Shown one piece after another: positions 7,110-59,072 of a DNA stretch of 64,000 bases (position 1 is the first letter of the stretch; each line of letters opens with the position of its first letter). Source of the stretch: an uncultured Bdellovibrionales bacterium. Its GTDB lineage: Bacteria; Patescibacteriota; Minisyncoccia; Moranbacterales; UBA1568. A model generated the notes under the pieces. That model saw nothing but the letters and a program-made list of their open reading frames with translations, did not search any database and was not told the origin of the DNA. Location of the stretch: contig CAZQWS010000003.1 of NCBI GenBank assembly GCA_964597355.1, forward strand, positions 15,301-79,300. The letters are read 5' to 3'. A program made the translations under genes and the position numbers.

Positions 7110-9215
7110 ATGTCACTCCATACTCTTTTTTCGCCCAAAAGCGTCGCTGTAATCGGAGCTTCCACTCGCCCAGGTTCTGTAGGTAACGACGTCGCAAAAA
7201 ATCTCGCCAAAAGCGATTTTCGTGGCGCAGTCTATTTCGTCAACCCTAAAGGCGGTGAACTCTTTGGCAAGGTTTGTTACCCTTCAATCAGTGCCCTGCC
7301 CGAACCAGTCGAGCTCGTCATTATCATTGTCCCAGCCACGATCGTCCCACACGTACTCAAAGAAGCGGGGGAAAAAATGACCCGGGCTGCCGTAATCATT
7401 TCCGCGGGCTTCCGTGAAACAGGTAGCACTGGCAAAGCTTTAGAAGAAGAGGTTATCGCCATCGCCAAAGAATATCGCATGGAGCTCCTCGGCCCAAACT
7501 GCCTTGGTTTCATTCGTCCTAAAGCTTTCCTCAATGCCTCCTTTGCGTCTACCCTCCCTGTCGACGGCCCTATCGCGTTCTTTTCCCAAAGCGGCGCTCT
7601 CACCAGCGCTTTCCTTGATCTCAGTCATGGTAATCTTGGATTTTCCACTTTCGCCTCAATCGGCAACAAAGCTCTTCTCGATGAAGCAGCTTTTCTCGCT
7701 CATTTCAAGGAGGACACAGCCACCAAAGTTATCGGCTTCTATACCGAAAGTCTCGTCAATGCCCCTCGCCTGATCAAACTCGGTCAAACACTGCTTGCTA
7801 AAAGTAAGCCTGTCATTGCGCTGAAATCAGGCACGACCGAAGCTGGCACCAGCGCCTCGAGTTCACATACGGGTGCCGTAGCCGGAAGCGATGCCGCTTA
7901 TACTGCGCTCTTTCGACAATCCCGCATCACTCGCGCCAAAAACTTTCAAGACCTCCTTGATCTCCTCTCAATCTTTGCGCATAACCCACTCCCAAAGAAC
8001 AATCGAGTCGCTATCGTCACCAACGCTGGTGGATTAGGAGTACTCGCTACCGATGCTTGCATCGAAAACGGACTAACATTGGCTACACTTGATGCAGCTA
8101 CCATTGCTAAACTTCAAAAAATTCTCCCACCGGCCGCCAATAGCCACAATCCAATCGATGTCTTGGGTGATGCTTTGGCCGAGCGCTACGCCCAAGCGCT
8201 CGACATCGTCGCCCAAGACAAACACATTGATCTACTCCTGGTTATCCTCACTCCTCAAACTATGACTGAGGATGAAAAAACAGCTGCGGCCGTTACCGCC
8301 ATTCATAAAAAATATCCCGAACTCCCTATCGCTACTGTGTTCTCGGGAAAAAAGTTAGTTGAAAAAGGTATTCAGGAACTCGAACATGTGGGCATCCCTA
8401 ACTTCCTCTCGCCGGAACGGGCGGCTCGAACCTTGGGCGCTTTGGCTCAAGTAGCGAAATGGCAAACGAGCCAAATAAACGAGGTTATGGCAACGTTTAC
8501 CGATATTGACCAAACACCAGTACAACAAGTACTAGAGACAGCGCGCAGGAACAACACCCTTCAACTCGGTGAGGCACCTGCGACTACTCTTCTTAAAGCC
8601 TATCAATTTCCTTTTCTTTCAAGCCAACTCGTCACTACTCGCGAGCAGGCCATAACTTTCGCCCAGACACTCGGGAAATCGATCGCACTCAAAATCGCTT
8701 CGCCGGATATTATCCATAAATCTGATGTCGGTGGCGTACTACTCGATATAAACCCAGATGAAGCTGATGTTGCCTTCGAGCACCTGATCGACACAGTGCG
8801 ACAGCATGTACCAGAAGCAAGGATCGATGGCGCGATGGCAGTGGAAATGGCTGAGTCAGATGGAATCGAGCTCCTTCTTGGTCTCAAGCAAGAAGCAGGC
8901 TTGGGCACGCTCGTCGTTCTTGGCCTCGGTGGCATCTATGTTGAAGTGTTCAATGACATCAGCATGCGCTTTGCTCCACTTTCGGAAAATGACATTGAAG
9001 AAATGATTGCTGAACTCAGGGCCTATCCACTCCTTGCTGGTACCCGTGGCAAACAACCTATCGACCTTGCAAAGTTAAAAGAATATCTAGCGCGACTGTC
9101 ACAACTTGCGATCGATCATCCAGATATCGCCGAACTTGATATCAATCCGCTCTTGGTTTTCCCCGAAGGCGACCGCTTTCGCATTCTCGATGCCCGCCTC
9201 CGGCTCAATCCATAA
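7110..9215 (+). CDS. acetate--CoA ligase (ADP-forming) / NDP-forming acyl-CoA synthetase, fused alpha+beta
   Basis: CoA-binding Rossmann N-terminus 'KSVAVIGASTRPGSVG', a succinyl-CoA-synthetase-like domain and a C-terminal ATP-grasp. The track ORF starts at a TTG at 7050 inside the promoter, so the start is set to the ATG at 7110 (MSLHTLFSPKS). Confidence 0.7.
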   Translation: MSLHTLFSPKSVAVIGASTRPGSVGNDVAKNLAKSDFRGAVYFVNPKGGELFGKVCYPSISALPEPVELVIIIVPATIVPHVLKEAGEKMTRAAVIISAGFRETGSTGKALEEEVIAIAKEYRMELLGPNCLGFIRPKAFLNASFASTLPVDGPIAFFSQSGALTSAFLDLSHGNLGFSTFASIGNKALLDEAAFLAHFKEDTATKVIGFYTESLVNAPRLIKLGQTLLAKSKPVIALKSGTTEAGTSASSSHTGAVAGSDAAYTALFRQSRITRAKNFQDLLDLLSIFAHNPLPKNNRVAIVTNAGGLGVLATDACIENGLTLATLDAATIAKLQKILPPAANSHNPIDVLGDALAERYAQALDIVAQDKHIDLLLVILTPQTMTEDEKTAAAVTAIHKKYPELPIATVFSGKKLVEKGIQELEHVGIPNFLSPERAARTLGALAQVAKWQTSQINEVMATFTDIDQTPVQQVLETARRNNTLQLGEAPATTLLKAYQFPFLSSQLVTTREQAITFAQTLGKSIALKIASPDIIHKSDVGGVLLDINPDEADVAFEHLIDTVRQHVPEARIDGAMAVEMAESDGIELLLGLKQEAGLGTLVVLGLGGIYVEVFNDISMRFAPLSENDIEEMIAELRAYPLLAGTRGKQPIDLAKLKEYLARLSQLAIDHPDIAELDINPLLVFPEGDRFRILDARLRLNP

Positions 9216-12990: not shown

Positions 12991-13040
12991 AAGAGGGTTT
13001 TGGATATGCTTTTGAGCATTTTTCCAAAACCCTCTTTGAA
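12991..13040. terminator. bidirectional hairpin terminator between convergent genes
   Basis: Perfect inverted repeat aagagggttttgga (12991-13004) / tccaaaaccctctt (13023-13036) in an A/T-rich context. Lies between the 12984 (+) gene end and the 13068 (-) gene end. Confidence 0.5.
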
Positions 13041-13067
13041 TTTCCCAACAACGCTCTCTCGTAATAC

Positions 13068-13811
13068 CTACGGACGGGACACGCCGAATACCCGCGGCAC
13101 AAGCACCGTTTGGTACTGACCCTTGGTGTCACCAATCCAGTCCGAGAGCCAGGCCTCGCAGTTGTTGGACGTAGCGCAGCCTTGGGACCATCCATTGTAG
13201 TCCATGTTGCCTCGCCAGTAATCCATACCAAACTGCAATCGCGCATCCCCCTCAACCTTCACCACAGCAAGGATGCCATAACGAGCGCCAGGCACTGCCT
13301 TGACCCGAGGCTCCGTCCACATGTGAACGATTGATTCCGGGATCGGCTTGAGGTTGATGGAGAGTACTCCTCCCGTCAGGCGGACCACCGGCTTTTGGAA
13401 TGCCGGCTTGCCCGAAATGAACCATTCGGGATTGCGCTTGAATTGCGCCCCTTCGAGCTTAAGGGAACTTGCCCCATCGAAGCGAAAGCTCGTCTCGGTG
13501 TCAAAGCCGCCTTCTGGCTTGAAACGAATGATCTCCATCTTCTGGATTTCAATCGTGGCCGGACGGTTGCGTTCACACGCATACACCGTGACGGCGTTCA
13601 ACATGCCAACGACATGGTCGAAACCCTTGGTCGCCATGAACTGCGGCGATTGGTACTCCTGCTTGATGACCTCATTCGGCCACATGGCAGTACCCCTTTC
13701 CCCTGCCTGCGGGATGAGCCGATCGGGAAGGTTAGGAGCGCACGGAGCTGCTTCACTCAAGCCCGAAAACATGAGCGAAACGAGGAAAAAGAGGATGCTG
13801 AGCCAAGTCAT
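13068..13811 (-). CDS. exported hypothetical protein with W/N-rich C-terminus (CLec-like?)
   Basis: Signal peptide 'MTWLSILFFLVSLMFSGLSEA'. C-terminus 'DYWRGNMDYNGWSQGCATSNNCEAWLSDWIGDTKGQYQTVLVP' resembles the DGR-target C-terminus (YW..N.D..W....W...G.Q.VL.P). GC is higher than in neighbouring genes. Confidence 0.5.
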   Translation of the reverse strand: MTWLSILFFLVSLMFSGLSEAAPCAPNLPDRLIPQAGERGTAMWPNEVIKQEYQSPQFMATKGFDHVVGMLNAVTVYACERNRPATIEIQKMEIIRFKPEGGFDTETSFRFDGASSLKLEGAQFKRNPEWFISGKPAFQKPVVRLTGGVLSINLKPIPESIVHMWTEPRVKAVPGARYGILAVVKVEGDARLQFGMDYWRGNMDYNGWSQGCATSNNCEAWLSDWIGDTKGQYQTVLVPRVFGVSRP

Positions 13812-14012
13812 GTGAGAGCTCCTTGGTTAAAGAACCATTGGATTAAAAAACTGCCAAAACCAAGATACACGATCCAGATTTTGACTATTCATCATGCTAC
13901 AAAGTATATATAAAGTCAAGAGAAAAATAAGCAAAAGAAAAGGGTCTCTCTTGAACTTGCGTTCTTGAGAGACCCGTGATTGGTCAGTTGACCAAGTGAG
14001 CCCGAGGAGAGC

Positions 14013-14756
14013 TCAGTCGTCCTTGCCGGCCGCAACTTCTTGCGGAGCCGGCTGGGTGCCACTCGGCGGCTGGATGATGCGCGCGAGTTCACGGCGAGAC
14101 TGAGGGGTCAGCCTGACCACCTTGCCGGAAGTGTCGTAGCCGACCACCGTCGCTGGGAAGCGCTTGTCATTGGCCGCAAGTACCATGAAGTCGCCGATGC
14201 CGACCGCATTGTTGTTCGGCTTCCAGCCAGCGTGGCCGAGCCATGCCTGCTTGCCGTCGGCCTTGACGAGGAGGAAGTTCATCGGCAGATAGCGAACCGA
14301 CGTCCCGTTCGCCTTGCGGGTCGGGAACCGGAGCACCACTTGGTTGTCGCCAACCTTGGCCGAAGCGATGACGCCGTCCTTGCACTTGTTGTCCAGCTTA
14401 ACGGACGCTGCGGTCTTGCCGCCGCACCAGTCGTTGCCGAGCTCGAGCGCGTAGACGGTGCCACCGCGGAAGTAGGCTGGGTTTTCGCCGTACCACGCTT
14501 CGCGTTTGGCATCCGCGCCGCCTTCCTTCTCGCTCGATTCGCCGTAGGCGTAGAGGTTGGTGAGGGTGAGCGTCGTGGTGCTGCCGTCGGAGTTGAAGTT
14601 GATGACGGAGTCGCCGCCCGGCAAGGGATGGCCCTTGTCGTCGGTATAGCCGTCGACCGCGATCTTCGCCGCGGGTGCAGAAGGCGTCTGCGCCAGCGCG
14701 AACACCGGCACGATGAGGGCGATGAGCGCCCAGAAGAAATTGCGCAGTTGCTTCAT
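14013..14756 (-). CDS. exported hypothetical protein (GC-rich)
   Basis: Start moved to the ATG at 14754-14756 (MKQLRNFFWALIALIVPVFALAQTP is a signal peptide), with 'aaggagg' 8 nt upstream. Local GC is about 70% in sampled 60-mers. The antisense 244-aa ORF is rejected. Confidence 0.5.
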   Translation of the reverse strand: MKQLRNFFWALIALIVPVFALAQTPSAPAAKIAVDGYTDDKGHPLPGGDSVINFNSDGSTTTLTLTNLYAYGESSEKEGGADAKREAWYGENPAYFRGGTVYALELGNDWCGGKTAASVKLDNKCKDGVIASAKVGDNQVVLRFPTRKANGTSVRYLPMNFLLVKADGKQAWLGHAGWKPNNNAVGIGDFMVLAANDKRFPATVVGYDTSGKVVRLTPQSRRELARIIQPPSGTQPAPQEVAAGKDD

Positions 14757-14780
14757 GATGTGGCCCCTCCTTGAGGCTGA

Positions 14781-14838
14781 GTGGGGAAATCCCCGATGGT
14801 AAAGAAGGTTCGCCATTTCCCTAGGGGAAAGGTTCCCC
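14781..14838 (-). promoter_or_regulatory. two GGGGA(A)-N2-3-(T)TCCCC inverted repeats in the 5'UTR of 14013..14756
   Basis: Plus strand 'tggggaaatccccga' (about 14781-14795) and 'ggggaaaggttcccc' (about 14824-14838). They sit between the predicted promoter and the RBS. Confidence 0.3.
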
Positions 14839-14856
14839 ACGGAATAATGACTTTTT

Positions 14857-14885
14857 ATGATAGCGCAAATAATGATTATTGTCAA
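14857..14885 (-). promoter_or_regulatory. sigma70-like promoter TTGACA-17-TATCAT for the 14013..14756 gene
   Basis: Minus strand reads gggTTGACAataatcattatttgcgcTATCATaaaaag. -35 at 14880-14885, -10 at 14857-14862. Preceded (in transcription order) by a hairpin at about 14948-14980. Confidence 0.4.
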
Positions 14886-15108
14886 CCCTAAATAATGTAA
14901 AAAAAAATGGCTATAATAAGCCAATAAATAAGTCTTAAAAAGAATAAAGGGCAGATATCACGAAGATACCCGCCCTTTCAAATTGCGAACGATGTCGCTT
15001 CACTGAATTTCATCTATATCAGTGCCTAAGTCGCATGCGAGGATTGCTCCCTACAGTGGCGCCAAGACCTATTTATGCATCAATAGATTTAGTTCAGTGA
15101 TATACAGC

Positions 15109-16941
15109 CTACTTCAATGGCGGCGGGCCAATATCGATCGACTTGATGAAGCCGTTCTTGGCCCGATCCATCGCGACCCCTCGCTCGGCGGCTTCGCTCA
15201 CGATTTGGTGCTGACGCACCTTGTCGCGGACAACGCGGCCACCCTTGACGGGATCAGCCCACCAGCCGAGAGCTGGGACGAGGTCTTTGCAGTCCTCTTT
15301 GAGGTCACAGTTGAACCCAACACCAAGGCCCGCGATGTGGTTCGGGTCGGCAATGCCGCCCCGCAGGCTCATCGAAGCACTGGTCGGATGCTGAACGAAG
15401 ACCCCTGCCTGGAAGTACGGGTGTACCAACGCGTCCGGAGACTCGTAGATCCACTGACGGAACCCCGCCTGGAGACCGAAGTCGAAACGCGAGAGATCAC
15501 CCGTATCGGCAATTGGCTTGCCGAAGTACGAGTGACTCACGTCCTTGCCCAGGGGGAAGGTCAGTGCGCCGAACACTTGCCATTCAGGGAACCATTCCTC
15601 GCCCTTCAGTCGGCGCCGATAGTCGTTGAGGCCAGCGGTTAGTCCCGCGAGGTCGAACTCACGCTTGGAAGCGTAGGCACCCTCCTGGTACTTTTCCACT
15701 TGCTTACCACCGACAATCGATACCTCCCAATCAATCCCCTTGTCGAGGATCTGCTTGTAGGAGGGGCCGAAGAGCACGTTCCAACCACGGAATTGCCCGC
15801 GGTCGCCACTCGTGTTGCCGTCCCACATGGAAGCGGTAATCTTGGCACCGACACCATGCGAGCCGTCGTCACTCGGCAGTCGCCGGAGACAGTACACGCT
15901 AGCGGTCGCGAACGTTGAGTCATCCTTCGCCCCATCATCGTGTGACAGGGTGTACTCCTGACCGAGAGACGCTGCAGGATCGATGTGATCACACATGGCC
16001 TTCGGCTTCGGAGCCTGCACAACTGGCACGACAGGTGTCGGCGGCGGTACAGCAGAAGGTTCGACTTTTACGAACGGAGCGCTAGCAGGTGGCTCAGGCG
16101 AAGTCACCGCCGGTAACGGTGGGACCGGCGGCAGTGTCATTGGGAAGAAGTTGCAGCAGAGTTCAAACTGCCCCACCCACTTGCCATCGATTTCACCAAC
16201 ATTGGCCCACATGTCCTGTTTGACGAGGACACGCCCCTTCCAGTACCCATGACCGAACGACAGACCATCGATGAATGTCCCAGCCTTGATGAGCTTGCGC
16301 TCCTTCACGAGAGTGGTCCACTTCATCGCCGTTTCCTTCGGGATTTCGAGATCCCGAGCGAGTACAGCAATTTGGTCCAACTTCTTGCACACAGGATCAC
16401 CACCAGGACGGCTGAACACACAGTAACCAAGCTTCGTCTTCGAGCAATCGACCAGTTGGTACCGGTTTTTCGGCACGAAGAAACGCTTGCCGACCTTGTT
16501 CATTCTGGCGAGAGTGGCATCGCTCACAACAAGGCTGAGCTTTTGGCCCGGCCGAATGTCATGGCAATCCTCGAGTTTATTCTCGAGGCAGAGTTCCTTC
16601 CAGTCGAGGTCGTACTGCTTCGCGATCTTGATGAGCATGTCGCCCTTCTTGATCATATATTCAGTCGCTTGTTTGTCCTCATTGACAACTTGTTCAGCTG
16701 TCAGTTCAGAGGCAATGCCCGCCGGAACACTCGCCACCGGAGCGGGAGTGCTAGCTGCCAAAACAGTGGGAACCGAAGCTTGCTGCCCCGGTGGATTTAC
16801 CACGTTTTTGGTAACCTGACCAACGTTGCCTTGCTTAGGCGTGTAGGTCGACCAGATTAACCCTGTAATACCAGTGAGCAGGATGACGAAAACCGCCCAT
16901 CCGGCCAACGGGTGACTCTTGGAAGAATATTGTTCACTCAT
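15109..16941 (-). CDS. membrane-anchored LysM-domain protein with Pro-rich linkers and large C-terminal domain of unknown function
   Basis: N-terminal TM 'LAGWAVFVILLTGITGLIWS'. LysM-like block 'YMIKKGDMLIKIAKQYDLDWKELCLENKL...IRPGQKL'. Pro-rich 'PPVPPLPAVTSPEPPASAP...PPPTPVVPVVQAPKP'. GC about 58-72%. Confidence 0.55.
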   Translation of the reverse strand: MSEQYSSKSHPLAGWAVFVILLTGITGLIWSTYTPKQGNVGQVTKNVVNPPGQQASVPTVLAASTPAPVASVPAGIASELTAEQVVNEDKQATEYMIKKGDMLIKIAKQYDLDWKELCLENKLEDCHDIRPGQKLSLVVSDATLARMNKVGKRFFVPKNRYQLVDCSKTKLGYCVFSRPGGDPVCKKLDQIAVLARDLEIPKETAMKWTTLVKERKLIKAGTFIDGLSFGHGYWKGRVLVKQDMWANVGEIDGKWVGQFELCCNFFPMTLPPVPPLPAVTSPEPPASAPFVKVEPSAVPPPTPVVPVVQAPKPKAMCDHIDPAASLGQEYTLSHDDGAKDDSTFATASVYCLRRLPSDDGSHGVGAKITASMWDGNTSGDRGQFRGWNVLFGPSYKQILDKGIDWEVSIVGGKQVEKYQEGAYASKREFDLAGLTAGLNDYRRRLKGEEWFPEWQVFGALTFPLGKDVSHSYFGKPIADTGDLSRFDFGLQAGFRQWIYESPDALVHPYFQAGVFVQHPTSASMSLRGGIADPNHIAGLGVGFNCDLKEDCKDLVPALGWWADPVKGGRVVRDKVRQHQIVSEAAERGVAMDRAKNGFIKSIDIGPPPLK

Positions 16942-17071
16942 AATTCCGGCCTCCTTCAGCCATGAATTCGTTGGAAGAACTCAGGAACAAAGGTGGGCAG
17001 CAAGGAGCGACCCACGCTTCATCCCGAATCGGTTTGAAGACAAGAGGGTCGCTCATCATGAGCCTCTCCTT

Positions 17072-17929
17072 CTATTTGAGACAATCTTCTTTGGCAAACG
17101 CACTCACGACTTGGTAGCCGTAAAGCGCACCTACGAGTGGCAATGCCGCTTCCATCCCGGGCGAGAGCTTGAGACTCGTGCACGAGAGGAGTCGGTCACT
17201 CACGCCATCAAGCGAAGTGAAAGCTATGACAGCCTCCACATCCTGACGGCTTTTCCCGAGGTAGCGTCCGTTTTGACCACGCAGCCCAAAGACATACGTG
17301 AACCCATGGAGCATACCGTCGAGAGCAAGCCGCGCATGTTCGTTGTTGATCGGATCGAGCCGGACCACTTGCATGACCGGTGAACGATTCGTTACAAAGA
17401 AATCAGCGCGGAGTTCCTGGGGATTGAAACCTTTGGGAAATTCCACTCGCTTGCTAAGCGTCGTCATCCCCCATTTCCCGTCCGAAGACAGGATGAGAAT
17501 GGACTTCCCGGCGAAACGCCGGGTGTCAACTGCAAGAGGGAAAAAGACATCAAAGCCTTTCACCTTCTGATCGACGCGTGCCTGATAGAGCTCGATTTTC
17601 CCATGCTCCAGAAACACGATCACTCGAAATGTCTCGCGAATAAGCGGTTGGCGAACCTTGCGGCCACCTTCCACCACTTCGTAACTCCGAGCCGTGTCCA
17701 CGAATTCCTGTTTCCAGTAATCGGGAAGCGGCTCCGGAAGCTTGAAGTACATGTACGCCACCCCTTCGGGTACGAACACATCTGCGTCGAGCACGCGATT
17801 CTGCCAAGGTTCTTGCCTTCCAATGGTCTCGACTGTACGAACTTCGAAACCGCTATCACGCGGAAGCGAAGAAGCACAACCAGTAAGCCAGACGACGACA
17901 AGAGCCAGAATGACACGAGCGAACCTCAT
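17072..17929 (-). CDS. putative lipoprotein, unknown function
   Basis: 'MRFARVILALVVVWLTGCASS' is a signal peptide with an LTGC lipobox. 'gaaggagg' RBS. Immediately upstream of the LysM gene. Confidence 0.45.
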   Translation of the reverse strand: MRFARVILALVVVWLTGCASSLPRDSGFEVRTVETIGRQEPWQNRVLDADVFVPEGVAYMYFKLPEPLPDYWKQEFVDTARSYEVVEGGRKVRQPLIRETFRVIVFLEHGKIELYQARVDQKVKGFDVFFPLAVDTRRFAGKSILILSSDGKWGMTTLSKRVEFPKGFNPQELRADFFVTNRSPVMQVVRLDPINNEHARLALDGMLHGFTYVFGLRGQNGRYLGKSRQDVEAVIAFTSLDGVSDRLLSCTSLKLSPGMEAALPLVGALYGYQVVSAFAKEDCLK

Positions 17930-17988
17930 GTTGAGACTCCTAGTTGAAGTTGAATTGAAGTAGGATGTTTAGGTACTTCTTCGAATCT

Positions 17989-56230: not shown

Positions 56231-57370
56231 TTATTTCAGTCTGAATTTCAACGCCCGCATCACGTTCCACCCTCTCCCCCACTTCATCATCCCCTGGTAT
56301 GAAGTTAGTATTTCAAGCTCCCCTGACTTCGAGGCTATCTTTCGGAGCATCCTCCGCTTCGTCACCGTCCGTAACACTCGATGGCAGGGGAAATGCACCC
56401 AACCCAAGAAATCCACTCCACTCCCCAGGGTCTCAATCGAGACTTTGTTCGGATGGAGATCAAGACTGAGCCTCAGCTTGAGGAAAGCTTGGATTTTGGT
56501 GAGCAAGGTTTCAAGCTCTTGCTTGCTTTGTGACAACACTACAAAATCATCTGCATAGCGAATGTAATACTTCACTCTGAGTACATGTTTCACAAACTGG
56601 TCAAATTCATTCAGGTAGATATTCATCAGGAGTTGCGAAGTCAGATTGCCCAGAGGTAGTCCCTTCCCCTTGTCATCCCGAGCGCAGTCCCCGCCTGCCG
56701 GACGGGCAGGAAGAGATCCTGACTGGAAGCTGTACACGACTTGTCCAAGAAGCCATAAAATATCCGAGTCTTCAATCCATTCCTCAAGCATCCGTAAGAG
56801 AATCTCCTGATCAATACTGGCAAAGAACTTTCGGATATCACATTTCAAGACAAAGCATTGCTTAGTATAGTTCTTCGAGATTTTTCTTGAGAAGGTTTCA
56901 AATCTGAGTAAAGATTTATGGACTCCCTTGCCATCCTGACAAGAGTAAGAGTCCTGGATGAAACGTCTGAAAAAGGATGGCGAGAGGGCTCTATAGAGGA
57001 GGTGATGCAGCACCCTATCTCTCACGCTCGCTTTGTGAATGTCTCGTGGCTTGGGGTCATTGATCTTGAAAGCCTGATAGGGACCGTGAGTATATGTTTT
57101 CGTCTTGAGAGACTCATGGAGATCAATGAGATGATCCATGAGATGCAGCTCAAACTCCTGGACGTCTTTTTTCTGTTGCTTGCCTTTTCGGAAATTTTTC
57201 CAGGCCAAGAGGAGATTCTCGAGTGATATAATCTCTTGGTAACTGACGATAAATTTTGTTTTTCCCTTATGACCCAGACCCCCCCCGCAGGAATCTTGTC
57301 TTTGACCCAGAAGTTCAAGGCGCTCTACCGATCGTGGCAAGCTATCGTGCTCCATATTCCCAAAGTTCAT
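56231..57370 (-). CDS. DGR reverse transcriptase
   Basis: RT motifs in order: 1 'LENLLLAWKNFRKGK', 2 'PRDIHKASVRDRVLHHLLYRAL', 3 'VLKCDIRKFFASIDQ', 4 'GLPLGNLTSQLLMNIYLNEFD', 5 'YIRYADDFVV' (rc of atcatctgcata at about 56538-56549). Motif 4 has the DGR-specific [I/L]GxxxSQ in place of QGxxxSP. Confidence 0.85.
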   Translation of the reverse strand: MNFGNMEHDSLPRSVERLELLGQRQDSCGGGLGHKGKTKFIVSYQEIISLENLLLAWKNFRKGKQQKKDVQEFELHLMDHLIDLHESLKTKTYTHGPYQAFKINDPKPRDIHKASVRDRVLHHLLYRALSPSFFRRFIQDSYSCQDGKGVHKSLLRFETFSRKISKNYTKQCFVLKCDIRKFFASIDQEILLRMLEEWIEDSDILWLLGQVVYSFQSGSLPARPAGGDCARDDKGKGLPLGNLTSQLLMNIYLNEFDQFVKHVLRVKYYIRYADDFVVLSQSKQELETLLTKIQAFLKLRLSLDLHPNKVSIETLGSGVDFLGWVHFPCHRVLRTVTKRRMLRKIASKSGELEILTSYQGMMKWGRGWNVMRALKFRLK

Positions 57371-57658
57371 CGATATACATTTGGTAGTAAAATTGATACC
57401 CTCTTTCTCGAAATGCTTGAAATCCTGTTTCGAGCCCAGTATGCGAGGATGGAAACCAAATTACAGTACCTGGTAGCCGCCATCAGTAAACTCGATCTCC
57501 TCAAGTTCTTCCTCCAAATCGGTTGGGAAAACCAACTCATCGATACCAAACAATACACCAAACTCTCGGAAGATATGAGTGAGGTAGGGAGAATGCTTGG
57601 CGGCTGGAAAAAAGGCCTGGAAACAAAACTCTCACCGAAGGAGGTAAGAGAAACGTAA
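57269..57658 (+). CDS. avd: Avd-like accessory variability determinant (four-helix-bundle protein), opposite strand to RT/TR/target
   Basis: 129 aa, translated directly from the plus strand. '...HIPKVHRYTFGSKIDTLFLEMLEILFRAQ...LLKFFLQIGWENQLIDTKQYTKLSEDMSEVGRMLGGWKKGL' parallels Bordetella phage Avd as I recall it. Similar size to Avd. Its 5' end overlaps the RT ORF by about 100 nt. Confidence 0.65.
   Translation: MTQTPPAGILSLTQKFKALYRSWQAIVLHIPKVHRYTFGSKIDTLFLEMLEILFRAQYARMETKLQYLVAAISKLDLLKFFLQIGWENQLIDTKQYTKLSEDMSEVGRMLGGWKKGLETKLSPKEVRET
57279..57286. repeat. C8/G8 homopolymer inside the avd/RT overlap
   Basis: gacc cccccc gcagg: eight C on plus. It encodes T-P-P-A in avd and G-G-G in the RT N-terminus. 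Confidence 0.85.
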
Positions 57659-57667
57659 AGAAAGTAG

Positions 57668-57779
57668 CGGAGAAAGAACCTGGTCCCCGGCATTCCACTG
57701 GCCATTCTCGTCGAGCTTCCAATCGTTGACGTTCCACTTGTGGTTATCGGCGTTCCAGTAGAAGTTGACCGTGAAAATT
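57668..57779 (-). repeat. DGR template repeat (TR), 112 bp
   Basis: Aligns to 58151-58262 without gaps. All 16 mismatches are plus-strand T, i.e. minus-strand A, in this copy. In the target frame it would encode IFTVNFYWNADNHKWNVNDWKLDENGQWNAGDQVLSP, rich in AAC/AAT. Confidence 0.85.
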
Positions 57780-58129
57780 CTGTGTCTCGAGCCATCTATG
57801 CCACCACCCTTCGATAGCTCTTAAGGTTGCATCGTATCTGGGACCTCGAAGTCCACCAGCTCAAGACACCAACTCTCTTACTAAGATTTTTTGAAAATTG
57901 ACGACCCTCCTACGCGAGACTTGCCTACCACTCAGACAGGCGTATCCGGCGTAGCTCTCGCCAGTTCAATGCCCAATACGATGACTCCCAAGCCCATAGC
58001 CGGAGAGATTACGATCATATCGTTTAGATTGTATCAAAATAAAAGGCCCCGGGAAACTTTTTGCAAAGTGTCCAAGGGCCCACTGGTCCGCCTTTGGCGG
58101 AAGTGTCCAAGGGTCAGTTGACCCGATGA

Positions 58130-58764
58130 CTAGCGTGCCTGAGAGTTGGCCGGAGAAAGAACCTGGTCCCCGGCAGGCCACAGGCCACGCTCGCCGAGCT
58201 TCCAAGCGTCGACGTCCCACTCGTGGCTAACGGCGTCCCAGCAGAAGTTGACCGCGAAAACTTCGCCATTCACCCCCACCAAGTACATCAGGAAGTAACC
58301 CGGCATACCGTTGGGGTGGAGATCGATCAGGGAGATGATGTCCTCCCACTGGCCCAAGAAGGGCTTGATGAGTTCGGTCTGAATGACGCTATCGAACGCC
58401 GACCGCTGAAGCTCGTCGTTGTGGTAGACGCGCTCCGGTGCCGCTTCCACCGGCTTGAGGGCTGGCAGGATCCGCTCTCGGAAGGAGGGCGAGACCCAGA
58501 GACCCGGGCGTTCGGCAAAGGCTTGCGTCGGATCCGTCGACTGAGTGCGAGCCGGCAGCTTGATGGGAGATAGCTGCTTGAGAAGCGGTACGGGGACGAT
58601 TTGGGATCGGCCAGCGAGTAGCTCACCAAGCTGGAAGCAAAACTCTCTGTTTTGAGGGTTATCCTTGGCGAGGCGGCTCAGCAGCTTGGCTGCAGTTTCA
58701 CCGTGTTCGTCAGGAACAAACATAGCTGCTTTCGTGATCATCCCCACTGTTGCATTACTGGACA
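58130..58764 (-). CDS. DGR target (variable) protein with C-terminal C-type-lectin-like VR
   Basis: ORF open to 58822 (GTG). The best start is the ATG at 58762-58764, preceded by AGGAGA at -6 (MSSNATVGMITK...). C-terminal 37 aa are encoded by the VR. No signal peptide. GC about 62-68%. Confidence 0.7.
58151..58262 (-). repeat. DGR variable repeat (VR) at 3' end of target gene
   Basis: Encodes ...FAVNFCWDAVSHEWDVDAWKLGERGLWPAGDQVLSP. The 25 bp at the transcript-3' end (58151-58175) are identical to TR and GC-rich (tGCCGGGGACCAGGttctttctccg), which is IMH-like. Confidence 0.85.
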
Positions 58765-58981
58765 TGTCTTTCTCCTGTTTGGAGCGAGCTGTACGGCATT
58801 GACCAGACATTGGTTTCACCACAGCCCCTCACCTTTCTCTATGATTCTTGATCACCTCAAGAAATAACTACACAAATTCGTACGGTCGAGCAGAATTGTG
58901 CAGTATGCCTCTTACAAAGATTGATTGCGGAAGAGAAAAATAAGGGGCTATGGCAAAACTCTAGATTTTTAATGAACTAAT

Positions 58982-59010
58982 TATTATACACCTTTTTAGT
59001 GTTTTTTACA
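58982..59010 (-). promoter_or_regulatory. sigma70-like promoter TTGTAA-17-TATAAT upstream of DGR target gene
   Basis: Minus strand reads cTTGTAAaaaacactaaaaaggtgTATAATaattag. -35 at 59005-59010, -10 at 58982-58987, about 210 nt upstream of the start. Confidence 0.4.
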
Positions 59011-59072
59011 AGAGCAGGGAGATGCCAAAATAAGCCATTACACGGTTACTTGGAAGCCGAACTTCCAAGTAG

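Follow-up and report, generated by a model that had tools for sequence, protein, structure and literature searches.

The GC-rich target gene of a diversity-generating retroelement: a probably cytoplasmic protein on a module of probable foreign ancestry

Introduction

The locus described here raises two questions, namely why the target gene of a diversity-generating retroelement (DGR) should be so much richer in GC than the retroelement machinery beside it and the genome around it, and where in the cell the encoded protein acts. The original prediction, which concerned the same 64-kb stretch of DNA that is analysed here (the window), offered for the composition either a separate history of the target or VR scaffold, or a constraint imposed by a protein rich in Ala, Pro, Gly and Arg, and saw in the missing signal peptide a departure from surface-displayed targets. 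The second question bears on a wider picture, in that most cellular DGR targets are thought to face outward and that, to our knowledge, all DGR variable domains solved or confidently annotated to date have a C-type-lectin (C-Lec) fold. The reading that we favour, with a probability of roughly 0.6, is that the gene encodes a cytoplasmic, DGR-diversified binding protein and is carried on a module that descends from a GC-richer background, spreads horizontally and is now losing GC. In this report, we explore the locus, the composition of the gene and the family to which its product belongs.

Organisation of the locus

The region 56231-59069 contains a complete DGR together with its target, and the feature under study is the target gene of that retroelement. 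The coding parts are:

58130-58765, minus strand: target gene, 211 aa plus stop codon; GC 0.594, GC3 0.72
58586-58765, minus strand: codons 1-60, the N-terminal region, poorly conserved and predicted to form a three-helix bundle; GC 0.53, GC3 0.55
58133-58585, minus strand: codons 61-211, the conserved alpha/beta domain; GC 0.62, GC3 0.78
56231-57370, minus strand: RT, 379 aa, with LGNLTSQ and YADD; Pfam RVT_1 at 3e-22
57269-57658, plus strand: bAvd gene; Pfam PF22296 bAvd at 2.8e-16 (60.4 bits; cutoff 40)

The RT is of DGR type, combining the RVT_1 domain with an [ILV]GxxxSQ-type motif and YxDD, and an NCBIfam search with it returned sub-threshold matches to other RT classes and nothing else. 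The avd gene runs on the plus strand, opposite to target, TR and RT; an alternative start for it is the TTG at 57296, as used in a sister locus (L001). There are no phage genes near the locus, and the phage and viral collections gave no match.

A 211-aa ORF from an ATG preceded by AGGAGA had been proposed, and this start is borne out with a shift of one nucleotide, position 58764 being the middle base of the codon: the ATG occupies 58765-58763 on the minus strand, and the AGGAGA SD lies at 58776-58771 with a spacer of 5 nt. The closest homologue (P0002) begins at the same Met, and the homologues support neither of the upstream starts, that is, the ATG of the NCBI record P0157 (226 aa) and the GTG at 58822 (230 aa). 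Long antisense ORFs in the GC-rich stretch (e.g. 58223-58573, plus strand) were set aside as by-products of the GC richness, given that conservation across about 500 clusters concerns the sense frame.

Template, variable repeat and diversification

About 350 nt separate the target from TR, and the repeats and their immediate surroundings are:

58151-58261, minus strand: VR, codons 169-205 of the target
57668-57778, minus strand: TR, 29 adenines in 20 codons; GC3 0.78 in the VR frame
57629-57650, minus strand (that of TR): hairpin and T-run just 3' of TR, within the 3' end of the oppositely oriented avd

Aligned over 111 nt, TR and VR show 16 differences, every one of them at an adenine of TR, with no mismatch at any other base. 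None of the 29 TR adenines occupies a third codon position, AAY codons predominate at the variable positions, and the theoretical repertoire from these 20 codons is about 1e17 proteins. At the sister locus, likewise, 20 of the 22 differences between TR and VR are of the type A to N. The 90% cluster consists of three sequences, in all of which VR is identical, and no second VR was found within the 64-kb window. VR ends 18 nt upstream of the target stop codon, and its last 24 nt (58151-58174) are identical to TR despite containing two adenines; this stretch is a candidate IMH-like boundary.

By the mechanism that we propose, RT and Avd would make from TR RNA a cDNA with errors specific to adenines, and this cDNA would then replace VR, the mark for retrohoming being provided by the 24-nt VR end identical to TR and by a conserved hairpin/terminator element downstream. 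On the last three predicted beta-strands of the protein the variable positions alternate with invariant F, V and W, such that the rewriting of up to 20 codons would generate one hypervariable face of a sheet for ligand or protein binding. The adenine-only pattern of TR and VR is an observation, while the binding function of this face is putative.

Promoter, leader and 3' element

The gene is flanked by these non-coding features:

58983-59011, minus strand: sigma-70-type promoter, -35 TTGTAA at 59011-59006, 17 nt, -10 TATAAT at 58988-58983
59049-59069, minus strand: perfect hairpin CTTGGAAG-N5-CTTCCAAG, 3 nt past the murJ stop
58766-58982, minus strand: 5' leader of about 210 nt, with conserved blocks GTTCATTAAAAA and AGTTTTGCCATAGCC
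58036-58129, minus strand: conserved 3' element, with two CCCTTGGACAC motifs, small hairpins, and a long hairpin with T-run
57779-58035, minus strand: spacer between target module and TR, 91.5% identical to that of L001

Related genes occur at other loci, for which neighbours, DGR context and composition are as follows:

Window: lepA / murJ; DGR adjacent; gene GC3 0.72, host GC3 0.46
L001: MGMT / uvrA; DGR adjacent, with a split RT ORF; gene GC3 0.74, host about 0.45
L003: uvrC / uvrA; no DGR adjacent; gene GC3 0.74, host about 0.54
L011: ruvX / GT2; TR and RT absent within 8 kb; gene GC3 0.77, host 0.51-0.64 including ribosomal protein genes
L013: 34% identity; no nearby TR or RT; gene GC3 0.71, host 0.49
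L015: gene GC3 0.56; GC of the rest of the contig 0.44
L016: 35% identity; target-TR-antisense-avd layout; gene GC3 0.66, host 0.65
L012: gene GC3 0.37; GC of the rest of the contig about 0.40
L006: gene GC3 0.47, host GC3 0.62-0.68
L006 to L009: 29% identity; directly upstream of uvrA, no nearby TR

The promoter matches the consensus at 10 of 12 positions, and from its end to the ATG there are 217 nt, close to the distance of about 210 nt at which TTGTAA-17-TATAAT had been predicted. A promoter scan taken by itself does not rise above chance (2 sites vs 0.7 +/- 0.8 in shuffles). The -10 box and the bases following it are, however, kept in four loci (the window, L001, L003 and L004/L011), each of which has a -35 box at 17 nt, with sequences that differ (TGGACA, TTGCAA and TTGACT elsewhere). 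The promoter is thus probably real, because the -10 box and the 17-nt spacing to the -35 box are conserved in orthologous modules, and the comparative evidence for it is good. Transcription from this conserved sigma-70 promoter would yield an mRNA that has about 210 nt of leader ahead of the reading frame for the 211-aa soluble protein. Among the conserved blocks of the leader is a CUGU...ACAG stem, 25-60 nt upstream of the RBS. The perfect hairpin further upstream is unique in the window, with 0.07 expected by chance, is found at the same place only in L001 and L003, and marks the 5' limit of similarity between target modules. Searched against Rfam with the gathering threshold and with E<=1, leader, spacer and TR region gave no match.

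The 3' element contains its two motifs (CCCTTGGACAC, or CCCTTGGA in the locus comparison) at 58068-58078 and 58103-58113, small hairpins at 58111-58124 and 58088-58100, and a long GC-rich hairpin at 58045-58081 that is followed by a T-run at 58036-58044, the whole having a fold z of -3.4. It is kept at every locus that bears the module, even where protein identity is as low as 29%, its DNA being conserved more strongly than the protein, and by inspection its inner stem has changes on both sides. We infer that the element acts as a terminator and is also a candidate retrohoming recognition element. Since the same element follows related genes without a nearby DGR, it may also serve a DGR located elsewhere. 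The spacer beyond it is recognisably conserved in L016 in its TR-proximal part.

The high GC content is synonymous

A contrast between 62-68% GC in the target and 48-55% in RT, avd and the surroundings had been claimed, and the contrast is real, although the figures were overstated on both sides: the target ORF has 59.4% GC, its conserved domain 62% and its best 200-nt windows 62.5-65.5%, compared with 46.7% in RT, 46.4% in avd and 47.7% in the whole window. In 100-nt bins, GC is 0.34-0.53 in the promoter and leader and 0.43-0.51 past the 3' element. At third codon positions, GC3 is 0.72 in the target vs 0.38-0.58 in 41 host genes.

One explanation is that the gene merely encodes an Ala/Pro/Gly/Arg-rich protein with native codon preferences. 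Composition does contribute, in that it raises the expected GC from a host mean of 0.47 to 0.507, and GC1 is somewhat raised at 0.64. The amino acids in question are nevertheless present at ordinary levels (A 9.5, P 8.1, G 6.2 and R 5.2%), and from the amino acids and the codon preferences of the 41 host genes a GC3 of 0.463 is expected, as against an observed GC of 0.597 and GC3 of 0.714 (z 7.9 and 7.7; the GC3 z-scores of the host genes range from -4.0 to +4.9). Exclusion of VR barely changes the excess (z 6.4-6.6). Since the observed values lie far above this joint expectation, the excess is synonymous, and most of it falls in the conserved domain; amino acid composition as its cause is refuted to the extent that we regard it as extremely improbable.

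Two other sources were considered and rejected. DGR adenine mutagenesis leaking beyond VR would affect A3, and T3 is depleted as much as A3: both are about halved and C3 is doubled relative to the host, with an A3/T3 of 0.62 in the target vs about 0.69 in the host. High expression with its codon bias is excluded by the much lower GC3 of frr, greA and dnaJ in the window and of the ribosomal protein genes that adjoin the L011 homologue.

Codon usage, compared with that of the neighbours as had been suggested, sets the target apart from every host gene. Its codons fit a second GC-rich island of the window (13.0-17.9 kb) better than they fit the host, by +0.17 log-likelihood per codon, whereas each of the 41 host genes fits host usage better (-0.22 +/- 0.07), as do RT (-0.13) and avd (-0.10), which are near the host.

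Origin of the high GC content

In the reading that we favour, the promoter, coding sequence and terminator would form a self-contained module that came from a GC-richer background and was inserted in differing contexts, the composition of the gene now drifting slowly towards that of the host. The module as we define it (promoter, leader, CDS and 3' element) is GC-rich in the absence of TR, avd and RT at L003, L011 and L013. Family members span GC3 values of 0.37 to 0.77; one matches a host of 0.65 and another lies below its host, so that neither the fold nor the DGR requires high GC. The first of these, L016, has the same DGR architecture in a genome of 54-57% GC and a matching composition. 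The family is often compositionally foreign, and in either direction, which fits a horizontal movement of the module. Finally, outgroup polarisation of silent third-position changes gives 10 from GC to AT and 1 from AT to GC, a small count obtained by a parsimony that is biased towards common-to-rare changes; this excess suggests decay towards the composition of the host.

A different history of the target, as originally envisaged, is therefore favoured by foreign codon usage, by a module that occurs without a DGR and by a GC loss of 10:1, but not in the form of a simple split between target and machinery. Against such a split, TR has the same GC3 as VR (0.78), the target-TR-avd architecture recurs at 35% target identity in L016, and the cassette has diverged in a mosaic fashion. 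In a comparison of the window with L001, nucleotide identity is 62% in the leader and also in codons 1-60 of the target, where the fraction of silent differences among same-amino-acid codons is 0.62; it is 82% in the target core (codons 61-168; silent fraction 0.31), 91.5% in the spacer, 92% in TR, 93% in avd (silent fraction 0.14) and 75.5% in the N-terminal part of RT (silent fraction 0.46). Since the divergence is mosaic in this way, the parts of the cassette differ in history or in constraint.

Three observations count against GC-richer ancestry. Six loci at 34-73% protein identity, in hosts of 45-51% GC, keep a GC3 of 0.71-0.77, which would be a long time for foreign DNA to remain unameliorated; avd and RT are near host composition both in the window and in L001; and no GC-rich donor genome carrying the exact sub-clade was found. 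The first of these also speaks for an alternative in which high GC3 is no relic of ancestry and is actively maintained in the target CDS, candidate causes being selection acting on the structure of the mRNA or the DNA, or a GC bias of repair or conversion tied to the repeated integration of cDNA at VR. Consistent with maintenance, only the CDS shows the excess; in the window, L001 and L003 its GC3 climbs from 0.45 at the 5' end to 0.85 beside VR; and in most relatives GC3 is higher in the conserved domain than in the N-terminal part. Yet the same 3' element accompanies a GC3 of only 0.37 in L012 and of 0.47 in L006, whose host stands at 0.62-0.68; L011 has no 5'-3' gradient; L003, L011 and L013 are equally GC-rich with no DGR nearby; the depletion is not adenine-specific, as the A3/T3 ratio indicates; and the polarised silent changes amount to a net loss of GC. 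On balance we consider active maintenance unlikely, and retain descent from a GC-richer background as the preferred reading.

Localisation of the target protein

The absence of a signal peptide or TM segment had been noted from the sequence and is confirmed by a hydropathy heuristic, used here in place of SignalP: the maximal Kyte-Doolittle 19-residue mean among windows starting in the first 40 residues is 0.57 for both the 58765 and the 58822 start variants, vs 1.83-1.91 for two signal-peptide proteins of the same window that served as positive controls. No cryptic secretion signal was detected by this measure in either variant, and the target has no lipobox, Tat motif or hydrophobic N-terminus. 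The property is a family trait, since a TM-like segment is missing from 142 of 152 family representatives and a hydrophobic N-terminus occurs in a single one. On the basis of hydropathy, the target is most likely a soluble, cytoplasmic protein, and its diversification would then probably concern an intracellular recognition function.

The contrast drawn earlier with surface-displayed targets holds as regards the missing signal, but such a protein is not unusual among cellular DGR targets in general: most cyanobacterial DGR targets are predicted to be cytosolic (PMC7517822). Most cellular target clusters are reported to bear an N-terminal TM segment or signal peptide (Roux et al. 2021; PMC8144416).

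Protein family and fold

Word-indexed protein searches yielded 4, later 9 relatives (three of them at 73, 68 and 46% identity), and the family became visible through an exhaustive profile (HMM) search, which returned 505 clusters at E<=1e-3 and 168 at E<=1e-10. Its members are small, about 150-260 aa, and share the C-terminal 150 residues, with the motif F.V.V.W....R.W.V..W.L...G.W.AG..VL.P in VR. A Pfam search of the target gave no match; among 62 members none matched the C-Lec Pfam families at E<=0.1, and there were six isolated single-member matches to Pfam (E 0.011-0.095). Similarly, PHROGs and NCBIfam gave no match for the target and two relatives, a PDB sequence search with the family profile none at E<=10, tblastn against phage and plasmid sequences none, and metagenome scans with two alignments together with a viral-contig scan no confirmed relative.

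An AlphaFold model from 62 sequences, which replaced a run with only 4 (pLDDT 44), reaches a pLDDT of 88, and >95 for residues 61-205. It places an N-terminal three-helix bundle before an alpha/beta domain, in which VR spans the last three strands (169-177, 182-189 and 201-205). With the whole model, helical N-terminus included, the best Foldseek match in the PDB has E 0.41 and TM 0.15, and a BFVD fold search gave nothing.

Is this domain a highly divergent C-type lectin or a new scaffold? In the predicted model the elements after residue 89 follow the order strand, helix, strand, helix, helix, four strands, which is compatible with the C-type-lectin order beta1-alpha1-beta1'-alpha2-beta2-5, and the presence of the helical N-terminus in the fold searches leaves room for a hidden similarity. 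The usual C-Lec VR pattern is GG.W...R...GFR, however, and the motif here (F.V.F.W....W.V..W.L...G.W.AG) does not contain it; the fold searches and the 62 members searched against Pfam likewise speak against a lectin. On the other hand, annotated VR regions are reported to be systematically C-Lec, and the authors of that study expect those that are uncharacterised to include new C-Lec variants (Roux et al. 2021; PMC8144416). Taking these together, we would bet against a divergent C-type-lectin fold, while regarding it as a serious contender. That the conserved 150-residue domain is an undescribed, non-C-type-lectin DGR scaffold is proposed tentatively from the model, at a little short of even odds, and it is similarly somewhat doubtful that such a new scaffold travels as a promoter-gene-terminator module whose 3' DNA element lets distant DGRs retarget it.

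Implications

We consider the family a candidate intracellular non-lectin DGR scaffold, and this is a more interesting result than the GC question from which the analysis set out. If it is correct, a widespread family of about 500 clusters of small, signal-less, non-lectin proteins would widen the range of architectures that tolerate massive programmed variation, and would suggest that the DGRs of small-genome bacteria serve recognition inside the cell. With about 20 programmable positions on its sheet, the compact domain could also be of use as a scaffold for engineered DGR-based evolution. The locus further provides a concrete example of one DGR cassette with parts of unlike base composition.

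Comparison with known systems

The element resembles the DGR of Bordetella phage BPP-1 (Mtd, bRT and bAvd) in its SQ-motif RT, bAvd-family protein and TR of about 110 nt, in having VR in the last target codons with adenine-only substitutions and AAY codons at the variable positions, and in an unchanged GC-rich 3' boundary followed by a hairpin. The BPP-1 target is a phage tail-fibre tip, whereas the target here is a small, soluble cellular protein with no C-type-lectin match and no phage genes nearby. In addition, avd here is read from the other strand and runs antisense to the sequence downstream of TR, and the long hairpin follows VR by about 70-100 nt, unlike in BPP-1, where the hairpin comes directly after the IMH.

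Legionella LdtA and Treponema TvpA are, like the protein described here, cellular DGR targets with a C-terminal VR. They are displayed on the cell surface and bear lipoprotein or Tat signals, in contrast to the present target, whose N-terminus is neither hydrophobic nor marked by a lipobox or Tat motif. The target differs likewise from most cellular target clusters in having no N-terminal TM segment or signal, and from annotated VR regions in having no C-Lec match (Roux et al. 2021; PMC8144416). With the cytosolic DGR proteins of cyanobacteria (Vallota-Eastman et al. 2020; PMC7517822) it shares a predicted cytoplasmic location, but those are large, multidomain proteins that join kinase, protease or repeat domains to a C-terminal CLec, as opposed to 211 aa with a short helical N-terminus and a domain that does not match CLec.

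A further parallel lies among the cellular DGRs of Patescibacteria/CPR (clade 2; Roux et al. 2021; Paul et al. 2017), with which the locus has in common a chromosomal, small-gene context dominated by one strand, a single small target without assigned function, and relatives of the target at other sites that have no adjacent DGR.

A conserved stretch, probably of the DGR RNA, and antisense avd at the template repeat

The roughly 100 nt directly upstream of TR (window 57800-57900) are kept in L016 (1990-2097), where the target is only 35% identical, and this conserved stretch probably belongs to the DGR RNA. Within it are a hairpin, GGAC-TTCG-GTCC, and a stem of the form CCYY...RRGG in which both sides have changed. 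On the other flank, avd (57269-57658, plus strand) is antisense to the region directly downstream of TR, with both TR and RT on the minus strand, such that any transcript reaching from TR to RT would cross antisense avd. This layout is common to the window, L016 and L001, the sister cassette with its own DGR. Silent divergence between the window and L001 is unusually low in avd (0.14, compared with 0.31 in the target core and 0.46 in RT), and this low value may reflect a second constraint, exerted by an RNA element of the DGR on the opposite strand. Two further features lie within avd:

57629-57650, minus strand (that of TR): terminator-like hairpin and T-run, 18 nt past the TR 3' end, within the last avd codons
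57279-57286: homopolymer run of eight C, which is G8 on the strand of RT, within the divergent avd/RT overlap

The counterpart of the homopolymer in L001 (about 7860) is G9 instead of G8, and in L001 the RT is read in the other frame, beginning at a TTG; the run could be a slippage switch or a sequencing-error hotspot. In this sister cassette the RT (7828-8856) is divided into two ORFs of 205 and 125 aa, the LGNLTSQ region being absent or frameshifted, and the TR/VR pair still has 20 A-specific differences; the locus either is a DGR in decay or was misassembled.

Relatives of the target

Four loci share a leader stem, CUGU...ACAG enclosing ACCA...UGGU, located between 25 and 60 nt ahead of the RBS; its positions in the window and in L011, a related target module with no adjacent TR or RT, are as follows:

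window 58790-58830: conserved leader stem
L011 7960-8000: conserved leader stem

No Rfam entry matches the stem, which may be an RNA regulatory element.

The family members of L001, L003 and L006-L009 (29-73% identity) immediately precede uvrA and share its orientation, and uvrB or uvrC is often close by; the L001 target is separated from uvrA by TR, avd and RT, and the window copy of the target is not adjacent to uvrA. The association could be one of conserved synteny or of a preferred insertion site. P0153 (L006 6001-6702) and its counterpart P0040 (L010 55-759) are two versions of one gene, near-identical over some 175 residues with a single substitution and then differing throughout the last 55. 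The exact P0153 sequence was found on 56 contigs, there is no TR within 6 kb of it, and the gene resembles a remote target, or one diversified in the past.

Among GTDB species representatives the only family relative found was a 169-aa protein with 36% identity (L005 7959-8468). Neither a TR nor an RT lies within 16 kb of it; it is carried by an uncultured Bdellovibrionales MAG, and the family therefore extends beyond one phylum.

Codon usage and a second GC-rich island

The window holds a second GC-rich island:

13000-17930, minus strand: four genes, with 250-nt windows reaching a GC of 0.66

GC3 in these genes is 0.58-0.77, and their products include one signal-peptide protein, one TM/LysM protein and one lipoprotein, a LysM domain being the sole match in a Pfam search of the island proteins. 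In codon usage, this island is the nearest match to the DGR target.
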